From an uncultured Nitrososphaeraceae archaeon (lineage in GTDB: Archaea > Thermoproteota > Nitrososphaeria > Nitrososphaerales > Nitrososphaeraceae), in assembly GCA_963779615.1 (NCBI GenBank), contig CAVZZA010000004.1, forward strand, positions 1-64,000: 64,000 nucleotides of DNA. Reading direction: 5' to 3'. The first letter of the stretch is position 1. Each line of letters begins with the position of its first letter. The notes below the pieces were generated by a model that ran no database searches, had not been told where the DNA came from, and saw only the letters and a list, made by a program, of their open reading frames with translations. The position numbers and the translations under genes were made by a program. Below, in pieces: positions 616 to 12,111 of the stretch.

Positions 616-1640
616 ACCACAAAACCGCTACTGACCATTATGACATTATCGCTTATGTTTTCCTATACTACACCCAGGCCAAGACACATACCAGTGATGA
701 TGTTACAGAAGGAAAACAACCGACTGGTAATCTCCTATACAGGTATGAATTGATAAATGGCAAGTTAGTGAATCCGAAAATGTTGTTGGACCTTCCAGCA
801 ATACCTGGAGCTATTGGCAACGGTGGGAAGGTGATTATCGGTCCTGACAATAATGTCTATCTTACCATAGGGAGTGTTGGTGTCAATGGGCATATCACTA
901 AAGCACAAAATATCCAAAATGGGAGTGAGCCCGACGGAACTAGCGGAATACTCCGATTTAATCAAGATGGCCAGCCAATACCCCCAGGCATCCTGGGGAA
1001 CAAGTTTCCGTTGAACATCTACTTTTCCTATGGGATGTGGAACAGTTTTGGCCTTGCTTTTGATCCATTAACGGAAATATTGTGGGATACACAAATTGGT
1101 TTATCCTTTGGTGAAGAAATCAATCTGGTTAAACCCGGATATAACAGCGGCTATAACAAGGTTGATGGCATTTGGTTGCGCGGCTATAACACAGGTCAAA
1201 CTGAAAAGCAAGTTGCACCGCTACATCCAAATAGTTTAGCCGATTTTGGTGGAAAAGGAAAATACAACACTCCACAATTCACTTGGTTTCAGCAAGTGGT
1301 TCCGACTGGAATCACATTTCTTAATTCAAACACGATGGGAAGAAATTACCAAAACGATATGTTTGTTTCCGATGCAAAAAACGGAAATATCTACCACTTT
1401 AAACTAAACACACAAAGAACAGGAGTGCTGCTTCCCCCCGGCCCACTTGCAGATGGGATTGCAAACAGATCTGATTCTCTTAGCCAGATAATATTCGGAA
1501 AAGGCTTTGGTGCGATTACAGATCTTAAAGCAAGTCCTTATGATGGCCAGCTGTATGTGCTAACTTTCGACGAAACACGGGGAACAATATTTAGAATAGT
1601 TCCTATTAACAACCAAACATCTGGGTGCCAACATGTCTGA
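540..1640 (+). CDS. PQQ-dependent sugar dehydrogenase (glucose/sorbosone dehydrogenase family), main body; N-terminus frameshifted
   Basis: Motifs RGMLGIA, GNGGKVIIGPDNNVY, YGMWNSFGLAFDP, EEINLVKPGYNSG, PTGITF, FGAITDLK. Confidence 0.8.
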   Translation: MATYAHRGMLGIAVAPPSLTTDNLLNHKTATDHYDIIAYVFLYYTQAKTHTSDDVTEGKQPTGNLLYRYELINGKLVNPKMLLDLPAIPGAIGNGGKVIIGPDNNVYLTIGSVGVNGHITKAQNIQNGSEPDGTSGILRFNQDGQPIPPGILGNKFPLNIYFSYGMWNSFGLAFDPLTEILWDTQIGLSFGEEINLVKPGYNSGYNKVDGIWLRGYNTGQTEKQVAPLHPNSLADFGGKGKYNTPQFTWFQQVVPTGITFLNSNTMGRNYQNDMFVSDAKNGNIYHFKLNTQRTGVLLPPGPLADGIANRSDSLSQIIFGKGFGAITDLKASPYDGQLYVLTFDETRGTIFRIVPINNQTSGCQHV

Positions 1641-1700: not shown

Positions 1701-1973
1701 TTATTCAGCAATTAAGACAAAATTGAGGATGCTGTCCTTGTAGTCTTTGGTTATTTTATAGTCGCCACTGTCGCCAGCAGCGGTAGTGGCATAAAACTGC
1801 ACTGAAATTAGGTTTGGCCCTGTAACCAGTAAGGATGCTAATGCGGATAAATCAACAGACACCGTAAAATGTTCATATATGGGATATTGGTCTTTTTGGG
1901 GCTTGTTTAGGGTAGGACATTTGACACTGCAATCTCCTTTTGTGTTTATCGTCCTGCAAAGAGTAGCATTCAC
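1701..1973 (-). CDS. hypothetical protein, possibly a fragment
   Basis: 90-aa ORF only, no recognised motif. Confidence 0.25.
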   Translation of the reverse strand: MNATLCRTINTKGDCSVKCPTLNKPQKDQYPIYEHFTVSVDLSALASLLVTGPNLISVQFYATTAAGDSGDYKITKDYKDSILNFVLIAE

Positions 1974-2297
1974 TTACACCAAACAAAATAGGGGAAAAGA
2001 AGGCAATGAACCATGGTATTTCCCTCATCGTGTTTCATTACACCGTCACCATAACATCCCAATAACACTCCCACGCACGCGCGGAAGATGATATTTCCTG
2101 CTGCCTACTTGGGTTCTGGATGACCGCGGCTCGCGGCACTCGCCAAGCACAAGCCTCGGTCGCCAAAGAAAATGTGGATGGACCTAATCCCCTTACAAGC
2201 GAGCAGACACCCTGCACTTGCACACCCGGATGAGGATGACCCGCTTTAAGGTTGCCCCGTAACCATTGCGGGCCTCAAAAGCAGAAGATTCCCCTAT

Positions 2298-2440
2298 TCG
2301 GCAATACATACCTTACAAAAATGAGAACCCAACCATTGCCAATGTGTTTATATATAAGTATATGGTGAGTTGTGTACTTTTATACACCAATGCCCGAGTA
2401 ATCACCCATTATATATCTATGGCGAAACTCCATATATAAC
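2298..2440 (-). ncRNA. candidate structured small RNA or regulatory motif, copy C
   Basis: Minus strand reads TATATA..TAGAT..ATGGGTGATT..TTGGTGTA-TAAAAG-TACAC..TTGGCAATGG; aligns with the copies at 3205 and 10533. Confidence 0.5.
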
Positions 2441-3204
2441 GGAATACAGGGAACAGGGCAGGCTTTTGACAAAACCATTCGTTTGGGAATGGTGTTTCCT
2501 GTTGCCACTCACATACCCCCTTTTCGGGCTGATACGGCATTTTGGGCCTGGTATTCGAATACCCACCCAGCATGACAGCAGCACACCATACAGCCGCTGG
2601 TTTGGACCTGTGATATAGTTATGGCTGTAAGACTGGTCTTTCCGCAATGCACAACATCAATGGAGCGGTGGCCGCGTGCTTGTCTTTCTGTTGCAAAAAC
2701 GGGCAAGGCAAGCCCCATTGGAAAGAACGCCTGCCTGCCTTCGATCCAGTTGACTGGCTCATGTGTCACTCCCTGGTAAGTGAGTATTATCCGTAGCCCT
2801 GGTCAATGCATGCAGTCCCAAGGTCCTCAGATTTGCGCCACGCCCCATCGACGAACGGCTCAGTGCCGGTGGTGATTAGATTGCTGTCGTCTGAGGCGAA
2901 AAATGAGGCGGCTTTCGCGATTCCGTTAGGGCTCCATCCACCCCAGCGGCCACATAGCGTTCACGAGTTTTGCCTTTGATTGCTCGCCTAGTTCCTCTTC
3001 CGTGTTGACTATCGGACGGGGCTTCTGGTGTTGACGCGGTTCCTGCACTTAAGCATGACAGGCGGCTTGCCCTCTGCAAGAGGCAGATGGCGATCACGGA
3101 GAGGGAAAAGGCGGTTGCGGAGGGGGATGACGGAGAGGGTTTTGGGACGAGTCACAAGGCCTTGGGACGCTGCCTCAGGCGTCAATGGCGCCGGATTTAT
3201 TTAC

Positions 3205-3330
3205 TTATATATAAGTGAATGCGCGCTAGATATACTTATGGGCAATTCATTATAGTTTGGTGTCCTCAAAGACACTGCAATTGCTTTTGCTTTCGGCAGG
3301 TCAAAGGCTGTGGCGGGTGTTGCATGCCTC
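3205..3330 (+). ncRNA. candidate structured small RNA or regulatory motif, copy A
   Basis: TATATA..TAGAT..ATGGGCAATTCATTA..TTGGTGTC-CTCAAA-GACAC..AGGCTGTGG; same spacing as copies B and C. Confidence 0.5.
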
Positions 3331-3689
3331 CTTCATCATAGCATATCACCAAAGTGCTAATAAGTAAACGGCCCACCGCTTTTGTTTGTGCCTCATCCAG
3401 AAAGCCATATGAACTCCTTCAACAGTCCCTACCATCTTTTAGCTTTTACATCCTTTTAAAACCATTTAATGGATTTAAAGAGGGGTCGAGGGGTAACATG
3501 AACCCATGAACCGCCTAAAATCCACCATTGGCGATTGTAAAAAGTTTTCCAGTAACGCTTCATGATAGACCAGGGCCTAGGCCGCTGCACAACATCACAC
3601 GGGTGACCATACCACTCCATTTTGATCCAAAGACGGTTACAAAAACAGGGCCCAACATCCTTTCCAGGGGCAACATGCTTTGTGTTTGA

Positions 3690-3815
3690 CGCAATTCAGG
3701 GGCGACCGTCCAACTGCTATTAAAGGGAGAGGGGGACGGAGGCGGGCCAAGCCATGTAGTGGCGATACTAGGGATTGGTGGACTGGGGAGTGAGGACTTG
3801 GGCGTGATTCCCTGA
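3690..3815 (+). pseudogene. possible remnant of a zinc-dependent alcohol dehydrogenase (Rossmann segment)
   Basis: RNSGA...PSHVVAILGIGGLG..LGV resembles the MDR-family NAD-binding segment; bounded by stops. Confidence 0.3.
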
Positions 3816-3906
3816 TTCAGTTGTTCAAACAGGAAAGCATTAAATGATAATAGACACAAATGCATACACCTGATTAACAAATGGGCAAAGAAGGATCTAA
3901 CTAACA

Positions 3907-5604
3907 TTATATGTTTAAATCTATTTGATTATATCCGCTAGCACCCTTGGGAAACGGATCTTCTAACTTGGAGGTTTGGACCTGCCCTGTTTTGTCTGTT
4001 GCTCTTACTACAATGTCGAATGCGCCTTTACTCTCAGAAGTAAACTGGCTGGTCCATAGCACCCAGGTATATTGTGACAATGGATCTTTAACTACCGCTG
4101 TTTTCCACGTTTTTCCGCCATCTGTACTGACTTCAACCTTGGATATTCCTCGGTCCCCAGAAAAAGCAATTCCAGCGATTGGAATACTTTTTCCAACTGT
4201 AAAGGAATTATCTGTGACTGTGTGAGGAAATCGGTCCGTAATGGGCTGGCTTCCTGGAACCACGATTGATGAATAGATGTTTTTAATACTGTCATTTGTC
4301 CAGCCCTTTCTCTGCCAGAATCCTTCATATGTTTTATCTACCAATTCTATCTCTGTTATCCATTTCGGATTCATCATTCCATAGAAACCAGGCACTATTG
4401 CTCGAATAGGATATCCATGTTCATTGGTTAGCGGTGACCTATTCATATCATATGCTAAAATAGTTCCATCCATCATGCCATTCTCAAAGGGTATTCCGAC
4501 GTCATAGCCGTCTGAGCATCTAAAAACAACATACTTGACATTTGGTTTTATCCCTGCTTTGGATATCAGATCTCTGAGACGTATGCCTTTCCACAAGGCA
4601 GTGCTGGTCAAATTTCCGCCAATTTTATTGCTCACACAAACCAAAGTAGAGAATTGCTCAACTGGATCCATACTTTTAATTTCTTTATAGTTAATCACTA
4701 GAGGATTGTCCACCTGCCCTTTTATTGAGAGGTTCCAATCTTGAGCATTAACAACAGGGACAATTGCATTAATATCTATTCTATAAAAAAGATAAGCTGG
4801 AGTAATCTCGGCATCCAGTAATGGGGTCAGCCGTGGATCTTCAAAACCAACAGGTCTTGTTTTTGACTGCAATATTTGTTGTGTAGCGTTATTTTGAGCT
4901 TGTTGTGACAGTTCCGATCCTGATTGTTGTTCCGCGCTGTGAAGGATTCTATTGAAACCAAAATAAATTAACGGAAGGGCAATAGCAGATATTATCAAGG
5001 CCCGGATCATGTTCCTCTTATTGTAGTCTATAGATTGATTTTCATTATCTTTAGAGATTGCCCTCTCTTCTCCTTCATTTGGAACAGGTTTGATTGAATT
5101 TGATTTCTCATTTCCTTTTCTTAACAATAATGAAATTATTAATCCAAAACCAATATTGGGCAGTACGAATTTTGCTATCGAGCTATAAGGGATCAAAACA
5201 GGTTGTCCTGGAACTGTACTTAACGTAACAAAGATAACAACGATAAAAATTAGTATTGCATAAGAAATTAAGCTTGATAGGCCGGTTCTAATGATGTATC
5301 TATTCACTTTTAATCTATCAAATAATGCGCCTGAAATTATGCCTATTATTCCATAGAGTAGGATGCTAACCACCGTTGCACCAATAAATGTGGAATATTT
5401 TGCTAATGGTCCAAGAGTAAGTACAGCTTGAGATTCAATTTCCCCAGAAGTAATCGATATCAAGCCTTGAGACGCCAGTTCAGGAATAAACAATCCATTT
5501 ATGGTTAATTTTAAGAAAATCGATAATGCAAAAGCAACAAGTCCAGCTGCAAGTCCATAAACAAAAAACGATAAATAACGATTGCCTTTTATCTTTAGAA
5601 CCAC
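3907..5604 (-). CDS. polytopic membrane molybdopterin-dependent oxidoreductase (sulfite oxidase family)
   Basis: About 5 N-terminal TM segments; Mo-ligand Cys in TLVCVSN; HGYPIRAIVPGFYGMMNPKW; C-terminal dimerisation domain VEVSTDGGKTW, VRATD. Confidence 0.92.
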   Translation of the reverse strand: MVLKIKGNRYLSFFVYGLAAGLVAFALSIFLKLTINGLFIPELASQGLISITSGEIESQAVLTLGPLAKYSTFIGATVVSILLYGIIGIISGALFDRLKVNRYIIRTGLSSLISYAILIFIVVIFVTLSTVPGQPVLIPYSSIAKFVLPNIGFGLIISLLLRKGNEKSNSIKPVPNEGEERAISKDNENQSIDYNKRNMIRALIISAIALPLIYFGFNRILHSAEQQSGSELSQQAQNNATQQILQSKTRPVGFEDPRLTPLLDAEITPAYLFYRIDINAIVPVVNAQDWNLSIKGQVDNPLVINYKEIKSMDPVEQFSTLVCVSNKIGGNLTSTALWKGIRLRDLISKAGIKPNVKYVVFRCSDGYDVGIPFENGMMDGTILAYDMNRSPLTNEHGYPIRAIVPGFYGMMNPKWITEIELVDKTYEGFWQRKGWTNDSIKNIYSSIVVPGSQPITDRFPHTVTDNSFTVGKSIPIAGIAFSGDRGISKVEVSTDGGKTWKTAVVKDPLSQYTWVLWTSQFTSESKGAFDIVVRATDKTGQVQTSKLEDPFPKGASGYNQIDLNI

Positions 5605-6691
5605 TCTATCTTATAAAAAAATAAATGATTTAAGGTTTTTTCCATATTTGACTAAACATTGATACAAAGATGTGCAATGCAATCGCATCAGGCTCTGATC
5701 ATGTCCTGTTGATTTGATTTTTTTATTTTGCTATCCTTCTTGTTGGCCTAATACATATTTTCAATGATCGCTCATAGTAATTTCTGCTCAATTTAATCTA
5801 ACGAAATTAAGTAAAAATTATTCAAGACCACGAATCTATCTAGTAATGATTAACAAAAATCTATTTTAAATGCCAAGCAAACCCTTTTACTACCAAAAAT
5901 TTATTAATGTTGCATTTTACCAGGATCGTTAGGTCTACTCAAAGAGAACATATCTCATATGGTTGAGAGCGAGGTTCTGACCGAACCTGGTATACTAAAG
6001 GATTACACTGAACAAGGGAAGCAAAAAAGGTTAGTTTGCTGCTAAAAGCATCATAGGATAAAAAAAATCAATCATACATATTAAAGAATAAATTACAACT
6101 GCGTAGGAAAAAATAAACTATTGTACGCAAGTATGCAATAACAAATAAACCATTTTACCACATGGATTTGAGTCCCTCTCTCCTCTTGGATAATTGCTTT
6201 AATACCTAGAATTTACTTGTAGATGAAAATTAGACGGAGATATTTTAAATATGAACCCGTGAATTCAAGTAGCGTGTTCAAACCCCAATCCCTGACTAAC
6301 CATTACTCACTATATAGCCAATTTTGTAACCGATTATCTTAATTTCAATGTGATGATCCATTTTCAAAATATAAAAGTCAGTTTACCTGATTACAGTCCA
6401 TAATCAAAAACTTGTCTCCTTGAGTGTTGCCATGGAGTTCGAATCCATTCCCCGGTTGTCTTTGAATCAAAACACTAATTTTTTTAGCACGTTAAAATTT
6501 GTGATAATTGATGATGTTTTAATGGTTATTTTCTTTATAATGAAGCAGCGTTACAAAGTGAATATGCGAAGGATAACAATAGTTAACCAAAACATTAACG
6601 CATAGATTAAGATACACACAGAAACAAAAGATATATTCACATAAAAAGAAAAATAAAATTTTTAATACATGGATAAATCGTAAATACATAT

Positions 6692-6790
6692 ATGGAATTT
6701 TTAGATGACAGTGAATGGAGTGGGGAAGATGAGGATAGTGATTTTGAAGAGGATTTGTTAAAAGATAAGGGGGAAGAAGAAGATTTATAG
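6692..6790 (+). CDS. 32-aa highly acidic micro-protein
   Basis: MEFLDDSEWSGEDEDSDFEEDLLKDKGEEEDL; TATA-like TTTTAATA about 30 bp upstream; below the ORF-track cutoff. Confidence 0.5.
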   Translation: MEFLDDSEWSGEDEDSDFEEDLLKDKGEEEDL

Positions 6791-7335
6791 ATTATGAGAG
6801 CAGCAATGAAAAAAAGATTCAGGTAATTATTTTAAAAACTGGACAAGCAAATATAGAAAAACTGCAGACTTATTTTATCAAATATGTCTTATACAATAAT
6901 GATTGCAATAGATTTTTTCGAAATAAGCCAAAGTCTTCAATTCTGTACATAATATAGCCATAATTGTTATTTTAGTTATTGTTGAAAAAGTAAACTATTG
7001 TAAGATGTAATATACATAGGTTTTATAGTCAACAAATACACCAACATTGCAATTTTCATCCAATGTTATTTAAATTAGGTTATCAATACCTTAGAATATT
7101 TGGAAACTGAATTTGTGGCATTAAAATGTTCTTTAATGAAATTAACCCTATTCAAAGGATTGGGTATGCATTAATTCATTTCTTCACGAAAAAATGCAAT
7201 TAAGACAAATTTAGTCATTTTTAAAAGTGACTCGTTATTATAATCGGCTAGTCTACTTTGCTGAATATTTATTTGATTTGTATTTGCTATTCTGGATAGT
7301 TTTTCCTTTGGTTTGTAGAGACAAATAAACTCTAT

Positions 7336-7770
7336 TTATATTTTTTTAGCATCATTATTTTTGCTGTTATTTATAGTGGTGGTATCCCAAACATGCAAGT
7401 TCCGACTTAAAGATTCCTCAAATTCGGTTTTCTCTTCATTGTTTAAATATATTTTATATGATAAAGCCAAGTTTCTATTACCATTGTCTGTTAGACTGGA
7501 ATCTATTTTTCCTTCTATATACGCAAATTCTTTTTCACAATTAATATCAAGATTTTTTTTATCACCAAAAAAATTATTTTTAATAAATTCTATAGCATCG
7601 TGCCAAGTGAAAGCCTTTATTACGCCTATTGCTTCTCCATCAGAATAACGATTTTTGGTTTCATTATTGTATTTATAAACATCAAAATAATCAATTGATT
7701 TTTTACAGTTATTGCAATAAACGTTCTTGTCTTTTTTAGTGCAATCTTCGCATTGGTGTATTATTGCCAT
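7336..7770 (-). CDS. hypothetical protein with N-terminal CxxC...CxxC zinc ribbon
   Basis: CEDC...CNNC; 144-aa ORF with ATG start. Confidence 0.65.
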   Translation of the reverse strand: MAIIHQCEDCTKKDKNVYCNNCKKSIDYFDVYKYNNETKNRYSDGEAIGVIKAFTWHDAIEFIKNNFFGDKKNLDINCEKEFAYIEGKIDSSLTDNGNRNLALSYKIYLNNEEKTEFEESLSRNLHVWDTTTINNSKNNDAKKI

Positions 7771-8439
7771 TTTTGATAATATGTTGATCTTTTATTAATA
7801 AATAGTGATACAACCATTTCTAAATAATTTTTCTAATAGATTTTATATTGCATTTGCACTTCTTCTTGCTGTCAAATTTTATTAACTCCTCGATATGGAT
7901 TACAATAAAATTAAAATGTACTGTTAAAAATATAATAACAAATTCAGAACATTGCAATCAATTTTTTATATCTTGTTTTAGATGCGTCCTAAAGGAAATA
8001 TGATTTAGGTTTTCCTTCCATATCACTAAATTAACCTTATTTCTTTAATTTGAATTAATGATAACAAATTTAGCCATGTTTTATTTATTATGTATTGTTT
8101 TGATGAATTAAAAAATCTGTCGGAATTTCAATGCCATAAAAGTGATATTATTCGTTAACCTGGAAAATTGGGAAAATCTATTGTTTTTAATTATTCATTT
8201 AGGATTACTAAAAGTCGTATTTGCTTGATGTGAGTCTAAAATTAAACATTATGGGATTAGCTTGCTTATTGATGGAAGAGATGTGTGTTTGTGTTTTTTG
8301 TCGTAATAATACGTTTTATCATGTTGTGCGATAGTTTTAATATATTAAAATCAAGGTGAATTAACAAAAAATACCACCAGATTGTATGTTGACAACCAGT
8401 AGGTTTTCCTAAAATTTTAGCTGATTGTGTTGATAAAGC

Positions 8440-9696
8440 CTATGGTATGGTGGTAATAATTAGATATGAATTTAATGATAATATTATTGCAACAAATATC
8501 ATAGACATAACCGTTGTTGTTTTTCTATTAACAAACTCGCCCATTACTGCCTTGTTTCGTGAAATTAAAACTAGCGGTATGACCGGCAATGGGATTAACA
8601 AACTTAGGATTACTTGACTGTATACTAATATGTGTAGAGGATCAAAACCTAACAATAAAGCAACTGTTGTGGGTATTACATTTACAAATCTGGTTATTAT
8701 TCTTCTTATCCAAACATTAATTTTCATCCCCAGTAATCCTTCCATAATTGATTGACCCGCTAATGTGCCTATAATGGATGAAGAAATTCCGGATGAAAGC
8801 AGTGTGACTAAAAATACTATTCCAGCTCCACTACCAAATAGGGGAACCAGTGTTTTATACGCCTCGGATATGGAAGAAATTGGCGAATCGTGAGAGTAAA
8901 AAGCAGCAGCAGCCATTATCATTATTGCGGCATTAACCATTCCTGCAACAGTTAAAATAAAGATGTTCTCAAAAAGATGTAACTTTCTTATCTGCCTTTT
9001 TTCTTCTATTGTGATTTTCTCATTGCTTACTTTATTTTTTGTAAGCCATGAGTGAACAAAAATGGCGTGAGGCATAACTGTCGCCCCCATAATTCCAACT
9101 GTTATTAAAATAGCGTTACTGTTTTGTAACGAAGGAATAATTGAATGGTATAAGATGGCATAAGGATCTGGTTTCACAATAAATAATTCATATAAATACC
9201 CAAAACTAATTATTGAAACTAGAAGCATAAATAGTTGTTCTAGAAAACGGAATTTTCTTGCAGTAACGGTAAGAATTATAATAACATCTAAAGCTCCAAA
9301 TATCGCTGCTTGAATCATAGGTATGTTAAATAATAAATTTAATGCTATTACAGTGCCGAGATACTCTGCCAAGTCAGTAGCAGCCGTTGCGATTTCAGCA
9401 GAAAGCCAATAGGGTAAAATATATATCCTCTTTTTCAACTTGGTTCTAATAATTTCTGATAACGATTGTCCCGTGGCAATTCCTATTTTTCCTGATAGGT
9501 ATTGGAGAAGCATGGCCATTCCACTTGAAAGCCAAATTACCCACAGTAGATTGTAATTGAAAGTAGCCCCTCCTTGAATATCGGTGCCATAATTACCAGG
9601 ATCCATATACGCAACGCTTACCATTACTGCGGGTCCGGTATAGAGGAGAAACTTACGAAAATATGCCTTTTTAGTTTGGAAATGCCTAGACTTCAA
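8440..9696 (-). CDS. mntH: Nramp-family divalent metal (Mn2+/Fe2+) transporter
   Basis: Signature AYMDPGN and GATVMPHA; multiple TM helices. Confidence 0.95.
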   Translation of the reverse strand: MKSRHFQTKKAYFRKFLLYTGPAVMVSVAYMDPGNYGTDIQGGATFNYNLLWVIWLSSGMAMLLQYLSGKIGIATGQSLSEIIRTKLKKRIYILPYWLSAEIATAATDLAEYLGTVIALNLLFNIPMIQAAIFGALDVIIILTVTARKFRFLEQLFMLLVSIISFGYLYELFIVKPDPYAILYHSIIPSLQNSNAILITVGIMGATVMPHAIFVHSWLTKNKVSNEKITIEEKRQIRKLHLFENIFILTVAGMVNAAIMIMAAAAFYSHDSPISSISEAYKTLVPLFGSGAGIVFLVTLLSSGISSSIIGTLAGQSIMEGLLGMKINVWIRRIITRFVNVIPTTVALLLGFDPLHILVYSQVILSLLIPLPVIPLVLISRNKAVMGEFVNRKTTTVMSMIFVAIILSLNSYLIITTIP

Positions 9697-10241
9697 AAAT
9701 TATTAATCCCGTTTAATTTGCGACCTAATTTATATATTAATCAGCAAGGGTTAATAGTTTTAGTACTAGATGCACCAAAACTAAATCTACCTAAAGATAA
9801 ATGATTACCAAATATAAAAAGTATTTATTAACCCTGCCACCTACCATAATGTTTACTATTGCATAAAAACAATACCTCTTAATAATAATTCTACTGTATG
9901 ATGCATAATTGTAGAGGTAATGGCAAGTTTGGAATTTTAATATTGTTAATTTCTATAAGGTATTAATTTTTCTGTATTTTTAATATTTTAAGATTGAATT
10001 TTCTAATCAAGTGATCAATAACAACATTGTATCTTTTTTTTGACAACTAGTTGATAAATAAACACCTTTCAAGTAATGCAATAGGAAGCAACAGATACAT
10101 CTACTTATTCGTTTACGGTGATCATTTTCTATCTCCATATTTTAGGGGTTAGATAACCATTTTATCCTTGAGGTAAAATTCGAATTTATGTGCCTGATTA
10201 AAATGTGCTACAATTCAGCCCCTTTGTAAGACAATGCGAGT

Positions 10242-10418
10242 ATGGGTGTGCTGCCATGGTGGGTGTGCTGCTGTGGGTGTGCTGATGGTGGGTGTGCTGC
10301 CATGGTGGGTGTGCTGCCATGGTGGGTGTGCTGCCATGGTGGGTGTGCTGCCATGGTGGGTGTGCTGCCATGGTGGGTGTGCTGCCATGGTGGGTGTGCT
10401 GCCATGGTTGGGGTGTGC
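10242..10418. repeat. tandem array of 17-bp unit GGTGGGTGTGCTGCCAT
   Basis: 7 perfect head-to-tail units at 10287-10405 plus degenerate units on both sides; no spacers. Confidence 0.95.
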
Positions 10419-10532
10419 TTACACAAAAAAATCCAAAAATATGTGCCAGCCTCGAGTGGAAGCCTGTATATAGTGGTTATAACATCCCTCAAATGGATGA
10501 TTTGAGAATATCCCGTCTTATTCTCTTATGCT

Positions 10533-10665
10533 GTTATATAACTGAATCCCGCATAGATGAACTTATGGGTAATTCATTAATAATTGGTGTATTAAAGTAC
10601 ACAGGTTCATTCTACTAGCGTACATCACTTTTGGCAATGGAGAAGTTCCGTACTGCTTTTTCTTT
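10533..10665 (+). ncRNA. candidate structured small RNA or regulatory motif, copy B
   Basis: TATATA..TAGAT..ATGGGTAATTCATTA..TTGGTGTA-TTAAAG-TACAC..TTGGCAATGGA-GAAGT-TCCGT-AC-TGCT followed by a T-tract. Confidence 0.5.
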
Positions 10666-10706
10666 ATATGCTAATTGTTTATATGCATATAGATCAAGTT
10701 GTCAGT

Positions 10707-10782
10707 GCCATTGTGAGCAGCCATTGCCATTGTGAGCAGCCATTGCCATTGTGAGCAGCCATTGCCATTGTGAGCAGCCATT
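10707..10782. repeat. tandem array of 19-bp unit GCCATTGTGAGCAGCCATT
   Basis: 4 perfect head-to-tail units. Confidence 0.95.
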
Positions 10783-10895
10783 GACGTTATAAAAAGTCTT
10801 TAAACAAAAAAATCAAAATGGAATGAAATATGTGTACCTATTTTAAATGTCCGTTTTTAAAATAGAGGGTTAATATACTAAACTAATAAAATTGT

Positions 10896-11081
10896 TTATA
10901 TATTATTGTTCACAATTTTATTGACTTGTGTTGTAGAGGACTCTGTAAGGTTTTTCACTATTGGCGAATTTTTAATTTTCTCAAACCCGTTAAAAACGCT
11001 GTATAAGAAATTTGACCAGCCCATCCCTATTATCGCGAGGATAATTATAGCGATTAAAACCAATATAATAAGTGTACTCAC
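10896..11081 (-). CDS. small single-TM membrane protein
   Basis: 61 aa, hydrophobic N-terminus followed by GMGW. Confidence 0.55.
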   Translation of the reverse strand: MSTLIILVLIAIIILAIIGMGWSNFLYSVFNGFEKIKNSPIVKNLTESSTTQVNKIVNNNI

Positions 11082-11685
11082 TAATTATCACCATAAATAT
11101 AGTAAAACTGTTATAAAAACTAATTGTGTATGCAGTCTTACTTAAAAGTGGTATATTCCTTAATTTTTATCACTATCAAATGCTTTCTATAGATATTATT
11201 GGCTTAAAGTATTTATTAATTAGATTGTTAGTGAAACCGATATTTTTTATTTGGTTAGCATCTTTTATAGAACTTGTTTACTTGTAATAATTTTTCGTCA
11301 AACTGTGGTTATTGACCAAATTGTTGAATATTTGCCGGATTCAAGTTTGATTGACATGGTTATTTGCTAAAGCCAAGAAAACTATTACCATACAATAACC
11401 AATTTTAGTTTTTGAGAATCGTTTCACACACCAAACAATCTTGTATATTTAAAAAAAAGAGTATCAAGAAAGGCTCAACCCGACAAATAAATTGTAAGAT
11501 CATCTAATGAAAAAAATACTATTTTAAATTTAATTATCTAATTTAGTAATTTAACACCGTTTTACAAGAAATGGCCATCATATTATTTTATAACGTCATT
11601 GATTGACATACATCAATGAATTTATTTTTTATTAAGGCAAGCCCATTATTGTAAAAACCTTTTAAATTATTTTTGACTATTATGT

Positions 11686-12111
11686 TTGATGTCTCTAATT
11701 ACACCAAAAATTGCCAAACTTTTAAATGAAAAAAATTTTGCGTCTTTTGCAACTACAATGCCTGATGGCTCCCCACAGGTTTCCCCTGTGTGGGTAGATT
11801 ATGACGGTGGTTTAATTTTAATCAATACCGCTAAAGGGCGGGTCAAAGAAAAGAATATTAAAAATAATAGCAAAGTCGCGCTCTCTGTTTTTGACATGAA
11901 TAACCCATATGAGATGGCAACAATTAGGGGGACAATCACGCAGCAAACTACCGAAGGAGCTGATAATCATATCGACAAAATGGCCAAGAAATACCTTAAT
12001 CTTGAAAAATACCCATTACGAAATTCCACTGAAACAAGGCTGATATTAAAAATAAACCCGGAAAAGGTATTTTATGTGTCCATTCCAATAAATGATTTTT
12101 TGCAAGAATGA
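11686..12111 (+). CDS. PPOX-class F420-dependent oxidoreductase (pyridoxamine 5'-phosphate oxidase family)
   Basis: ATTMPDGSPQVSPVW, INTAKGRVKEKN, HIDKMAKKY. Confidence 0.9.
   Translation: MMSLITPKIAKLLNEKNFASFATTMPDGSPQVSPVWVDYDGGLILINTAKGRVKEKNIKNNSKVALSVFDMNNPYEMATIRGTITQQTTEGADNHIDKMAKKYLNLEKYPLRNSTETRLILKINPEKVFYVSIPINDFLQE

Follow-up and report, generated by a model that had tools for sequence, protein, structure and literature searches.

Miniature inverted-repeat transposable elements (MITEs) and repeats linked to insertion sequences (ISs) that carry regulatory sequence are an already known kind of genomic element. The Correia repeat-enclosed elements of Neisseria are small transposon-like repeats that combine promoter elements with a palindrome and land in front of genes; in these bacterial elements, parts of sigma-70 promoters are formed at the ends, and a site for IHF is present. 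Some archaeal small RNAs are linked to insertion sequences, for example, those of haloarchaea that overlap the transposase gene. Archaeal promoters consist of a B recognition element (BRE) and a TATA box about 26 nucleotides (nt) upstream of the transcription start, together with an AT-rich proximal element near position -10. Here we describe a repeated motif with a promoter-like head and a palindrome, three copies of which (A, B and C) are located in a 64,000-nt stretch of DNA, hereafter the window, from an uncultured Nitrososphaeraceae archaeon (contig CAVZZA010000004.1). The literature that we searched makes no mention of the family to which these copies belong and lists no small RNAs for the genus. 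We interpret the motif, with a probability of roughly 0.55, as a promoter module associated with mobile elements, in which the palindrome would be an operator or would form a hairpin close to the transcript's 5' end.

A promoter-like motif conserved across the genus

All three copies have the same layout (Table 1) and lie where the original prediction, which was made from the sequence alone, had placed them. The strict pattern ATGGGNNATT-N9-TTGGTGT matches the window three times, compared with 0.01 matches expected from dinucleotide shuffles, and a search with TTGGTGTNNNNAANNACAC recovers the same three sites and one site with a single mismatch at 11686. Other elements of the predicted layout hold as well: read from the sequence, ATGGG begins 29-32 nt past the start of the TATATA run, TTGGTGT begins 19 nt after the A of the ATG in 3/3 copies, and the palindrome is GTGTC-CTCAAA-GACAC in copy A and GTGTA-N6-TACAC in copies B and C. 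The core can be described as a TATA-like box followed, about 11 nt on, by an AT-rich putative proximal element, ATAGATATA, with a predicted transcription start at TTA(T/A)GG and a fixed palindrome, GTGT(C/A)-N6-(G/T)ACAC, 20-35 nt past this predicted start. The prediction was right about these three copies but underestimated both the number and the extent of the repeats: a hidden Markov model built from the three copies detects 17 in the source genome (3.17 Mb, 5 contigs), which fall into subtypes C (n=10), A (n=5) and B (n=2), and the homology extends far past the 130 bp originally delineated.

Table 1 Motif copies, the repeats that hold them and the associated insertion elements (positions refer to the window unless a contig or locus is given)
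Feature	Position	Strand	Description
Copy C	2303-2452	-	Core match of the covariance model 2362-2434 (73.2 bits); TATA-like box 2430-2439; ATAGATATA 2412-2420; ATG 2407-2409; palindrome GTGTA-TAAAAG-TACAC 2372-2387; second TATA-like box ~2348-2362; T5 run ~2318-2322
Copy A	3196-3345	+	Core match of the covariance model 3212-3285 (74 bits); TATA-like box 3205-3214; TAGATATA 3227-3234; ATG 3238-3240; palindrome GTGTC-CTCAAA-GACAC 3260-3275
Copy B	10521-10673	+	Core match of the covariance model 10539-10612 (75.5 bits); TATA-like box 10534-10541; TAGATGAA 10554-10561; ATG 10565-10567; palindrome GTGTA-TTAAAG-TACAC 10587-10602; T5 run ~10656-10660
C/A element	2012-3790		GC-rich non-coding repeat with C and A as divergent heads (blastn)
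B unit	10015-10783		770-bp repeat around copy B; twin at C3:381075-382144
Tandem array flanking copy B	10243-10419		17 bp x 10.6
Tandem array flanking copy B	10706-10783		19 bp x 4.1
Secreted-protein 5' fragment	1701-1973	-	90-aa open reading frame; adjoins the left end of the C/A repeat
1.04-kb IS5-like element (G000)	C3:439055-440040		Example copy
1.04-kb IS5-like element (G000)	C3:575166-576207		Example copy
1.04-kb IS5-like element (G000)	C2:17621-18665		Example copy
IS6-type insertion (G024)	L036: 1541-2231		Inserted in the motif box
IS6-type insertion (G012)	L096: ~850-1515		Inserted in the motif box
IS6-type insertion (G012)	L097: ~850-1515		Inserted in the motif box

Relatives carry further copies. 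Six of the other 33 genomes in the genus match the strict pattern, and so do 0 of the 204 genomes that represented 17 further genera of the family; reversed-pattern controls for this search gave 0 matches. With R1, a covariance model of the 74-nt core built from alignment A3, the core is found in 34/34 genomes of the genus (1 to 24 matches per genome, more than 200 copies in all); three genomes have weak matches only, near E 1e-3. In a family-wide control draw searched with the same model, 21/21 genomes within the genus and 2/129 outside it gave matches; one of the two outside cases is a single-genome genus with five matches (the best at 2.4e-7), and the other is a weak match (0.002) in 1 of 7 genomes of another genus. 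A scan of bacteria and archaea with one genome per species returned 29 matches, all in records with the title Candidatus Nitrosocosmicus or uncultured Nitrososphaeraceae, bar one metagenome-assembled genome labelled Nitrosopumilus. Viral contigs, searched with the pattern, and plasmids, searched by blastn with the segment 2012-3790, gave no match. The repeat family is almost restricted to one genus of soil ammonia-oxidising archaea, and public records that contain the motif bear the title Candidatus Nitrosocosmicus.

Across the genus, the consensus of the motif is TATAGATATA-TTAAGGGAAATTAATTAAA-N-AATGTGTC-TCAAGT-GACACAGGTTAA, with a TATA-like box, TTATAWAW, about 11 nt upstream of ATAGATATA, a spacing that is kept genus-wide just as in the source genome. 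In two genomes, paralogous modules are most alike at the core: between the ATAGATATA box and a point about 20 nt beyond the hairpin, their identity in G012 is 0.94-0.97, as opposed to 0.4-0.8 in the flanks, and in G067, identity at the core is 0.85-0.93.

Mobility in related species

Three congeners have the core inside a mobile MITE. The genomes G072, G002 and G013 contain a 409-bp element lacking any open reading frame (ORF), which is inserted about 45 nt upstream of the single-copy gene for aIF2-beta; the ends of this element are inverted repeats, AGATCTCTTGYGTAAT, of which the left one is about 150 nt away from the core. In eight close relatives, the site is empty, and the insertion is accompanied by a target duplication, TATTA, of 3-5 bp depending on the placement of the ends. 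In G013 (L121, C69:1-300), the element is reversed relative to G072 and G002, which reflects either an inversion or a second, independent insertion at this site.

The source genome (G000 in Table 1) harbors a 1.04-kb IS5-like element with the same inverted repeats (AGATCTCTTGCATAATTAG) and about 28 blastn matches, which encodes the HTH_Tnp_4 (1.7e-11) and DDE_Tnp_4 (3e-23) domains in two frames and is often frameshifted. One copy of this element adjoins the left end of one of the larger repeats that hold motif copies C and A (see below). The autonomous element does not contain the 74-nt core, and the core is therefore dispensable for that transposase. The abundance of the element is consistent with the IS5 expansion reported for a cultured species of the genus, Ca. 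Nitrosocosmicus oleophilus MY3, with 43 copies of IS5 elements (PMC6563490); the main text of that paper does not contain the word 'MITE', and its supplements may list the IS5 copies.

The arrangement of the module relative to such elements varies among species. In G067 (6/6 copies) and in G073, the module has an outer left repeat on one side and, on the other, the left repeat that belongs to an IS5-like element, and it is co-oriented with the transposase remnants, with the whole unit ending at the right repeat. In G012, G015, G024 and others, the core is contained in 500-bp repeats in which inverted repeats are not detectable. A left repeat is found about 150 nt upstream of the core at nine of the 48 loci inspected, a total in which one place is counted twice. 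In one genome, G022 (L064/L102, C11 ~8748-9377), one motif copy precedes an array of clustered regularly interspaced short palindromic repeats (CRISPR) with seven repeats (GTTTCAATCCTTGTTCTAATGGAC...), at a distance of about 100 nt from the first of these. A general role as a CRISPR-leader element was considered and rejected: six other loci with the same repeat type have no convincing match to the motif (best E 0.18).

Larger repeats in the source genome

In the source genome, the motif is embedded in larger repeats. The C and A subtypes are paired divergently, about 780 bp apart, at four loci, and in the window, such a pair is formed at the heads of a C/A element by copy C (minus strand, 2450) and copy A (plus strand, 3198). 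About 10 copies of this element are present in the genome, with about 75% identity and a length of 1.8-2.2 kb; four of these are full-length, and the remainder share only the part from 2012 to ~2950/3050. The GC content of the element is about 49%, compared with 36% for the genome. Copy B occupies a separate unit flanked by tandem arrays. That the motif forms a non-coding family in multiple copies, each having a promoter-like head and a retained palindrome of 5-bp arms and a 6-nt loop, was predicted originally and is borne out, but the copies are not units in their own right: they are parts of these larger repeats and, in congeners, of a MITE and an IS5-linked module. The 17 copies share with MITEs their multicopy nature and the lack of a conserved ORF, but the units that contain them, at 0.8-2.2 kb, are not MITE-sized. 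A screen of positions 1900-3900 for inverted or direct repeats beyond the motif yielded nothing convincing. No orthologous empty site came to light for the three window copies. The twin of the B unit on contig C3 (~380759-381913) contains many more tandem units, and a relative (L011) has a 23-bp array downstream of its motif copy.

A proposed promoter module spread by transposition

If the motif is a mobile-element-associated promoter module, the core would fire transcription into the downstream DNA, and the palindrome would be the operator to which a DNA-binding protein of the host attaches or would form a short hairpin near the transcript 5' end. The data show the repeat family, where it occurs, that it moves in congeners, that it is non-coding and that it has no extended conserved fold, whereas we infer promoter activity, the start site and the role of the palindrome. 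In related species, the IS5-like transposase would move the module, either as the interior of a MITE or as a cassette in front of the transposase gene; next to the IS5-like element, the module would act as the promoter cassette of the transposase, and in the MITE form, it would bring promoter activity to new sites. In the source genome, the module would have lost the transposon ends and would have been built into the C/A element and the B unit. The alternative that the original prediction offered, a promoter together with a palindromic protein site, may be correct.

Several observations weigh against this interpretation. A repeat of the AGATCTCTTGYGTAAT type (with up to 4 mismatches) is found near none of the 17 copies of the source genome, so the link to the MITE rests on the homology of the core and the ~150 nt upstream of it, and the window copies are relatives of the MITE interior rather than MITEs. 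In copy C, the upstream homology includes a GTCCAAAC(C)AGC block beside the place that the left repeat would occupy. Within the C/A element of the source genome, the core shows no more conservation than the sequence around it. At 17 loci of three complete genomes, the orientation of the downstream genes is mixed, and because these genes are not consistently co-oriented with it, the module is not simply a gene promoter.

The transcription data can be read in more than one way. These data come from two soil metatranscriptome runs (X19 and X20) that contain small shares of the window, in the form of unstranded assembled contigs, which do not reveal transcript ends, with at least 90% likeness to the window. 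RNA contigs of X20 cover 2162-3154 at a depth of 5-6 and 3155-3485 at 1.8, compared with 1-3 for the neighbouring genes, which suggests transcription of the C/A element or of its close relatives. However, the RNA contigs, which come from relatives with 90-99% identity, run, in both C and A, across the TATA box and the predicted start: an X19 contig extends 179 nt past 2389, and record 25 of X20 spans 3087-3252. Such cover fits read-through or other promoters as well as it does the promoter module. The AT-rich intergenic region 5803-8450 is covered by neither RNA run, whereas the DNA run X1 covers it throughout and the DNA run X2 at its start only. Copy B and its flanks (10437-10767) are covered by the DNA runs and by no RNA library, an observation that carries no weight given that contigs cannot show absence.

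It is a considerably bolder and rather doubtful proposition that the core is a mobile transcription unit maintained by selection, a portable archaeal promoter with an operator or a 5' hairpin that an IS5-like transposase spreads through Nitrosocosmicus genomes. The core would then drive the transposase and rewire neighbouring genes, and one host regulator could control all copies. If true, this would be a transposon-built regulon in an ammonia-oxidising archaeon, with copies in front of the essential aIF2-beta gene and in a CRISPR leader.

A possible small RNA gene family

The explanation favored by the original prediction was an independently transcribed structured RNA of about 100 nt with a covarying hairpin. 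In its current form, this alternative, which we consider unlikely, posits a family of small RNA genes that are units of their own, each giving rise to an RNA of 50-110 nt with its start at TTA(T/A)GG, a hairpin near the 5' end and a stop at a T run, with MITEs spreading the genes; one conceivable trans target of the RNA is the mRNA of the IS5-like transposase. The promoter-like head with its conserved spacing is compatible with such genes, and so is the peak of paralogue identity from the ATAGATATA box to about 20 nt beyond the hairpin. The genus consensus has CTTTTCTT directly past the hairpin, and T runs of at least five, 81-95 nt past the predicted start, are present in 6/10 copies of subtype C, 2/2 of subtype B and 4/5 copies from relatives, but in 0/5 copies of subtype A; downstream of copy A in the window, no T run of this length was seen.

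Folding does not support an extended conserved RNA structure. The fold z-scores of the three putative ~100-nt RNAs are -0.08, -0.07 and -0.65, that is, their energies are similar to those of shuffled sequences, and their best folds differ from one another; the 'second stems' that had been described in each copy likewise differ among them and yield no common structure by folding or RNAalifold. For 22 copies (17 from the source genome and 5 from relatives), RNAalifold predicts 0 pairs, and for 24 whole modules from many species, it predicts one 5-bp hairpin only, with a structure conservation index (SCI) of 0.19. In sliding windows over 2012-2911, the SCI ranges from 0.03 to 0.56, and the palindrome region alone stands out, on both strands equally. 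Thus, the hallmark of a structured RNA family, a conserved structure with backing from covariation and above-background stability, is not found.

The hairpin itself is better preserved. Across 63 distinct copies, 97.4% of the hairpin cells are paired, in an alignment that was fitted to the model and is therefore biased towards structure. Yet, four of the five stem pairs show no double-sided change, and the stem sequence is nearly invariant (GC in 58, UA in 62, GC in 55 and UA in 62 of the 63 copies). The fifth pair is CG in 44 and AU in 17 of the copies, and the AU form is restricted to the B and C subtypes of the source genome and their closest relatives, so the CG-to-AU switch possibly was a single event. 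Single changes in the stem include six G.U cells and five A.C cells, the latter at pair 3; because A.C, which is a wobble on the opposite strand only, is about as frequent as G.U, neither strand is favored. With one compensated change only, the 'covarying hairpin' of the original prediction is a conserved palindrome, which fits DNA recognition as well as RNA pairing.

The motif matches no Rfam family, in line with the original prediction, which did not recognise it as a known RNA: at gathering thresholds, Rfam has 0 matches in the whole 64-kb window, and with E values up to 5 in 2000-11200, there are six weak matches resembling small nucleolar RNAs (snoRNAs), none of them on the motif copies. 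The six sub-threshold, C/D-box snoRNA-like matches are located in 5625-10427, five of them within 5625-8712, and probably are due to chance. The cover of copies C and A by RNA contigs agrees with a small RNA gene, but these contigs cross the supposed promoters and also cover the centre between the two heads, and therefore, they do not reveal a discrete ~100-nt RNA.

A possible protein-binding site in DNA

Somewhat less plausible still is that the motif is a DNA-level site with no promoter role, in which a protein of the host or of the element, such as a recombinase, a chromatin protein or a replication factor, would recognise the palindrome together with the AT-rich boxes, and the likeness to a TATA box would be incidental, given the AT-rich genome. 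The near-fixation of the stem sequence itself, beyond mere complementarity, and the lack of strand bias among the single changes are what one would expect of such a site, and a further indication comes from insertions of IS6-type elements (DDE_Tnp_IS240, 1.6e-9) in the motif. In two species, these elements are inserted in the same box, with 8-bp duplications, ATAGATAT in G024 and TATAGATC in two copies of G012. The hits on the same 8 bp of the ATAGATAT box suggest an exposed or distorted DNA site; the sharing of the box suggests either a target preference or a copied composite. Conversely, the autonomous IS5-like element of the source genome does without the core, the CG-to-AU double change preserves complementarity, the spacing of the TATA-like box is kept throughout the genus and RNA contigs are found over the region, all of which speaks against a purely DNA-level role. 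The possibility that the motif is the end of an IS6-type element was also considered and is ruled out because these elements insert into the motif with 8-bp duplications: it is their target.

Lack of coding potential

The motif family is non-coding. The copies of the C/A element have no shared ORF and show no codon periodicity of substitutions (p 0.22-0.99), and only 33 of the 199 indels are multiples of 3. An explanation whereby the motif copies are decayed 5' ends of a protein family, with the ATG as the former start of a leaderless gene, is highly improbable: the ATG at the predicted start is kept in 14/17 copies of the source genome, but the frames stop after 5, 17 and 9 codons, as originally noted, there is neither codon periodicity nor a preference for indels in threes, and AAG takes the place of ATG in 8/8 copies from other genomes in alignment A3 and in most of the 28 copies of the genus alignment. 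Because this position usually is AAG across the genus, the ATG of the motif is not a start codon, and outside the source genome, neither the start codon nor the frame is kept, which dispels the concern, raised in the original prediction, that these might be decayed gene starts. In one relative (L008), a truncated ORF for a luciferase-like oxidoreductase begins about 75 nt past the hairpin, as would befit a decayed gene, but a tblastn search with this ORF finds nothing in the repeat. Derivation of the left arm from a decayed luciferase-like oxidoreductase gene was rejected on the same basis: tblastn locates the gene elsewhere in the genome and not in the repeat.

Other features around the repeats

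The secreted-protein fragment listed in Table 1, which was overlooked in the original prediction, lies on the strand of copy C, about 430 nt downstream of it. In G000, the large family to which this fragment belongs, secreted repeat proteins (NHL- or YVTN-like) with a common N-terminus, is encoded at C4:264-278 kb, C3:283 kb and elsewhere, and the segment 1723-1997 recurs at no fewer than ten places, several of them close to C/A elements. Some partial copies of the C/A element are continuous with GC-rich, opposite-strand dehydrogenase genes or fragments of such genes. The opposite-strand genes directly after partial copies encode a short-chain dehydrogenase (split or frameshifted) and a zinc alcohol dehydrogenase, and such sites are found at C4:278.7-279.4 kb, C5:831.7-832.3 kb and C1:136.8-137.9 kb (G000). 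Elsewhere in the window, the molybdopterin oxidoreductase region at 3876-5734 has a second copy, 98.5% identical, at C1:494682-492824, which looks like a recent duplication, and the region 5600-8400 is gene-poor, very AT-rich (GC 23-33%) and almost free of ORFs.

Implications and comparison with known systems

What initially appeared to be a new small RNA has become a more ordinary but concrete repeat family, nearly restricted to one genus, with a sharply conserved promoter-like core that is mobile in some species and fixed in larger repeats in the genome analyzed here. The soil ammonia oxidisers of this genus have large, repeat-rich genomes in which non-coding elements are almost unstudied. 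Should the core be an active promoter, it would represent a case of transposons spreading regulatory DNA in archaea and would provide a native promoter candidate for a group that lacks genetic tools. In addition, the repeated IS6 insertions in a single 8-bp box point to a possible target preference.

The closest known counterparts of the family are MITEs derived from IS5-like insertion sequences. The 409-bp, ORF-less element of the congeners resembles these in having the inverted repeats of an element that encodes HTH_Tnp_4 and DDE_Tnp_4, a target duplication and empty sites, whereas the window copies lack such inverted repeats and are contained in larger repeats, and the autonomous element does not have the conserved interior. 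The small RNAs of haloarchaea that are linked to insertion sequences are likewise non-coding units tied to a transposable element, and the unit described here is possibly transcribed; unlike those RNAs, the core is located 300-400 nt upstream of the transposase or within elements that contain no genes. In comparison with the typical archaeal promoter, the TTATAWAW box, ATAGATATA about 11 nt later and TTA(T/A)GG are at the expected distances, but there is no clear purine-rich BRE, and the match is one of sequence layout alone. Finally, the motif differs from the Correia elements in that it is archaeal, its TATA-type boxes are internal and its promoter activity is putative, but in both cases, a small transposon-like repeat contains promoter-like parts together with a palindrome.

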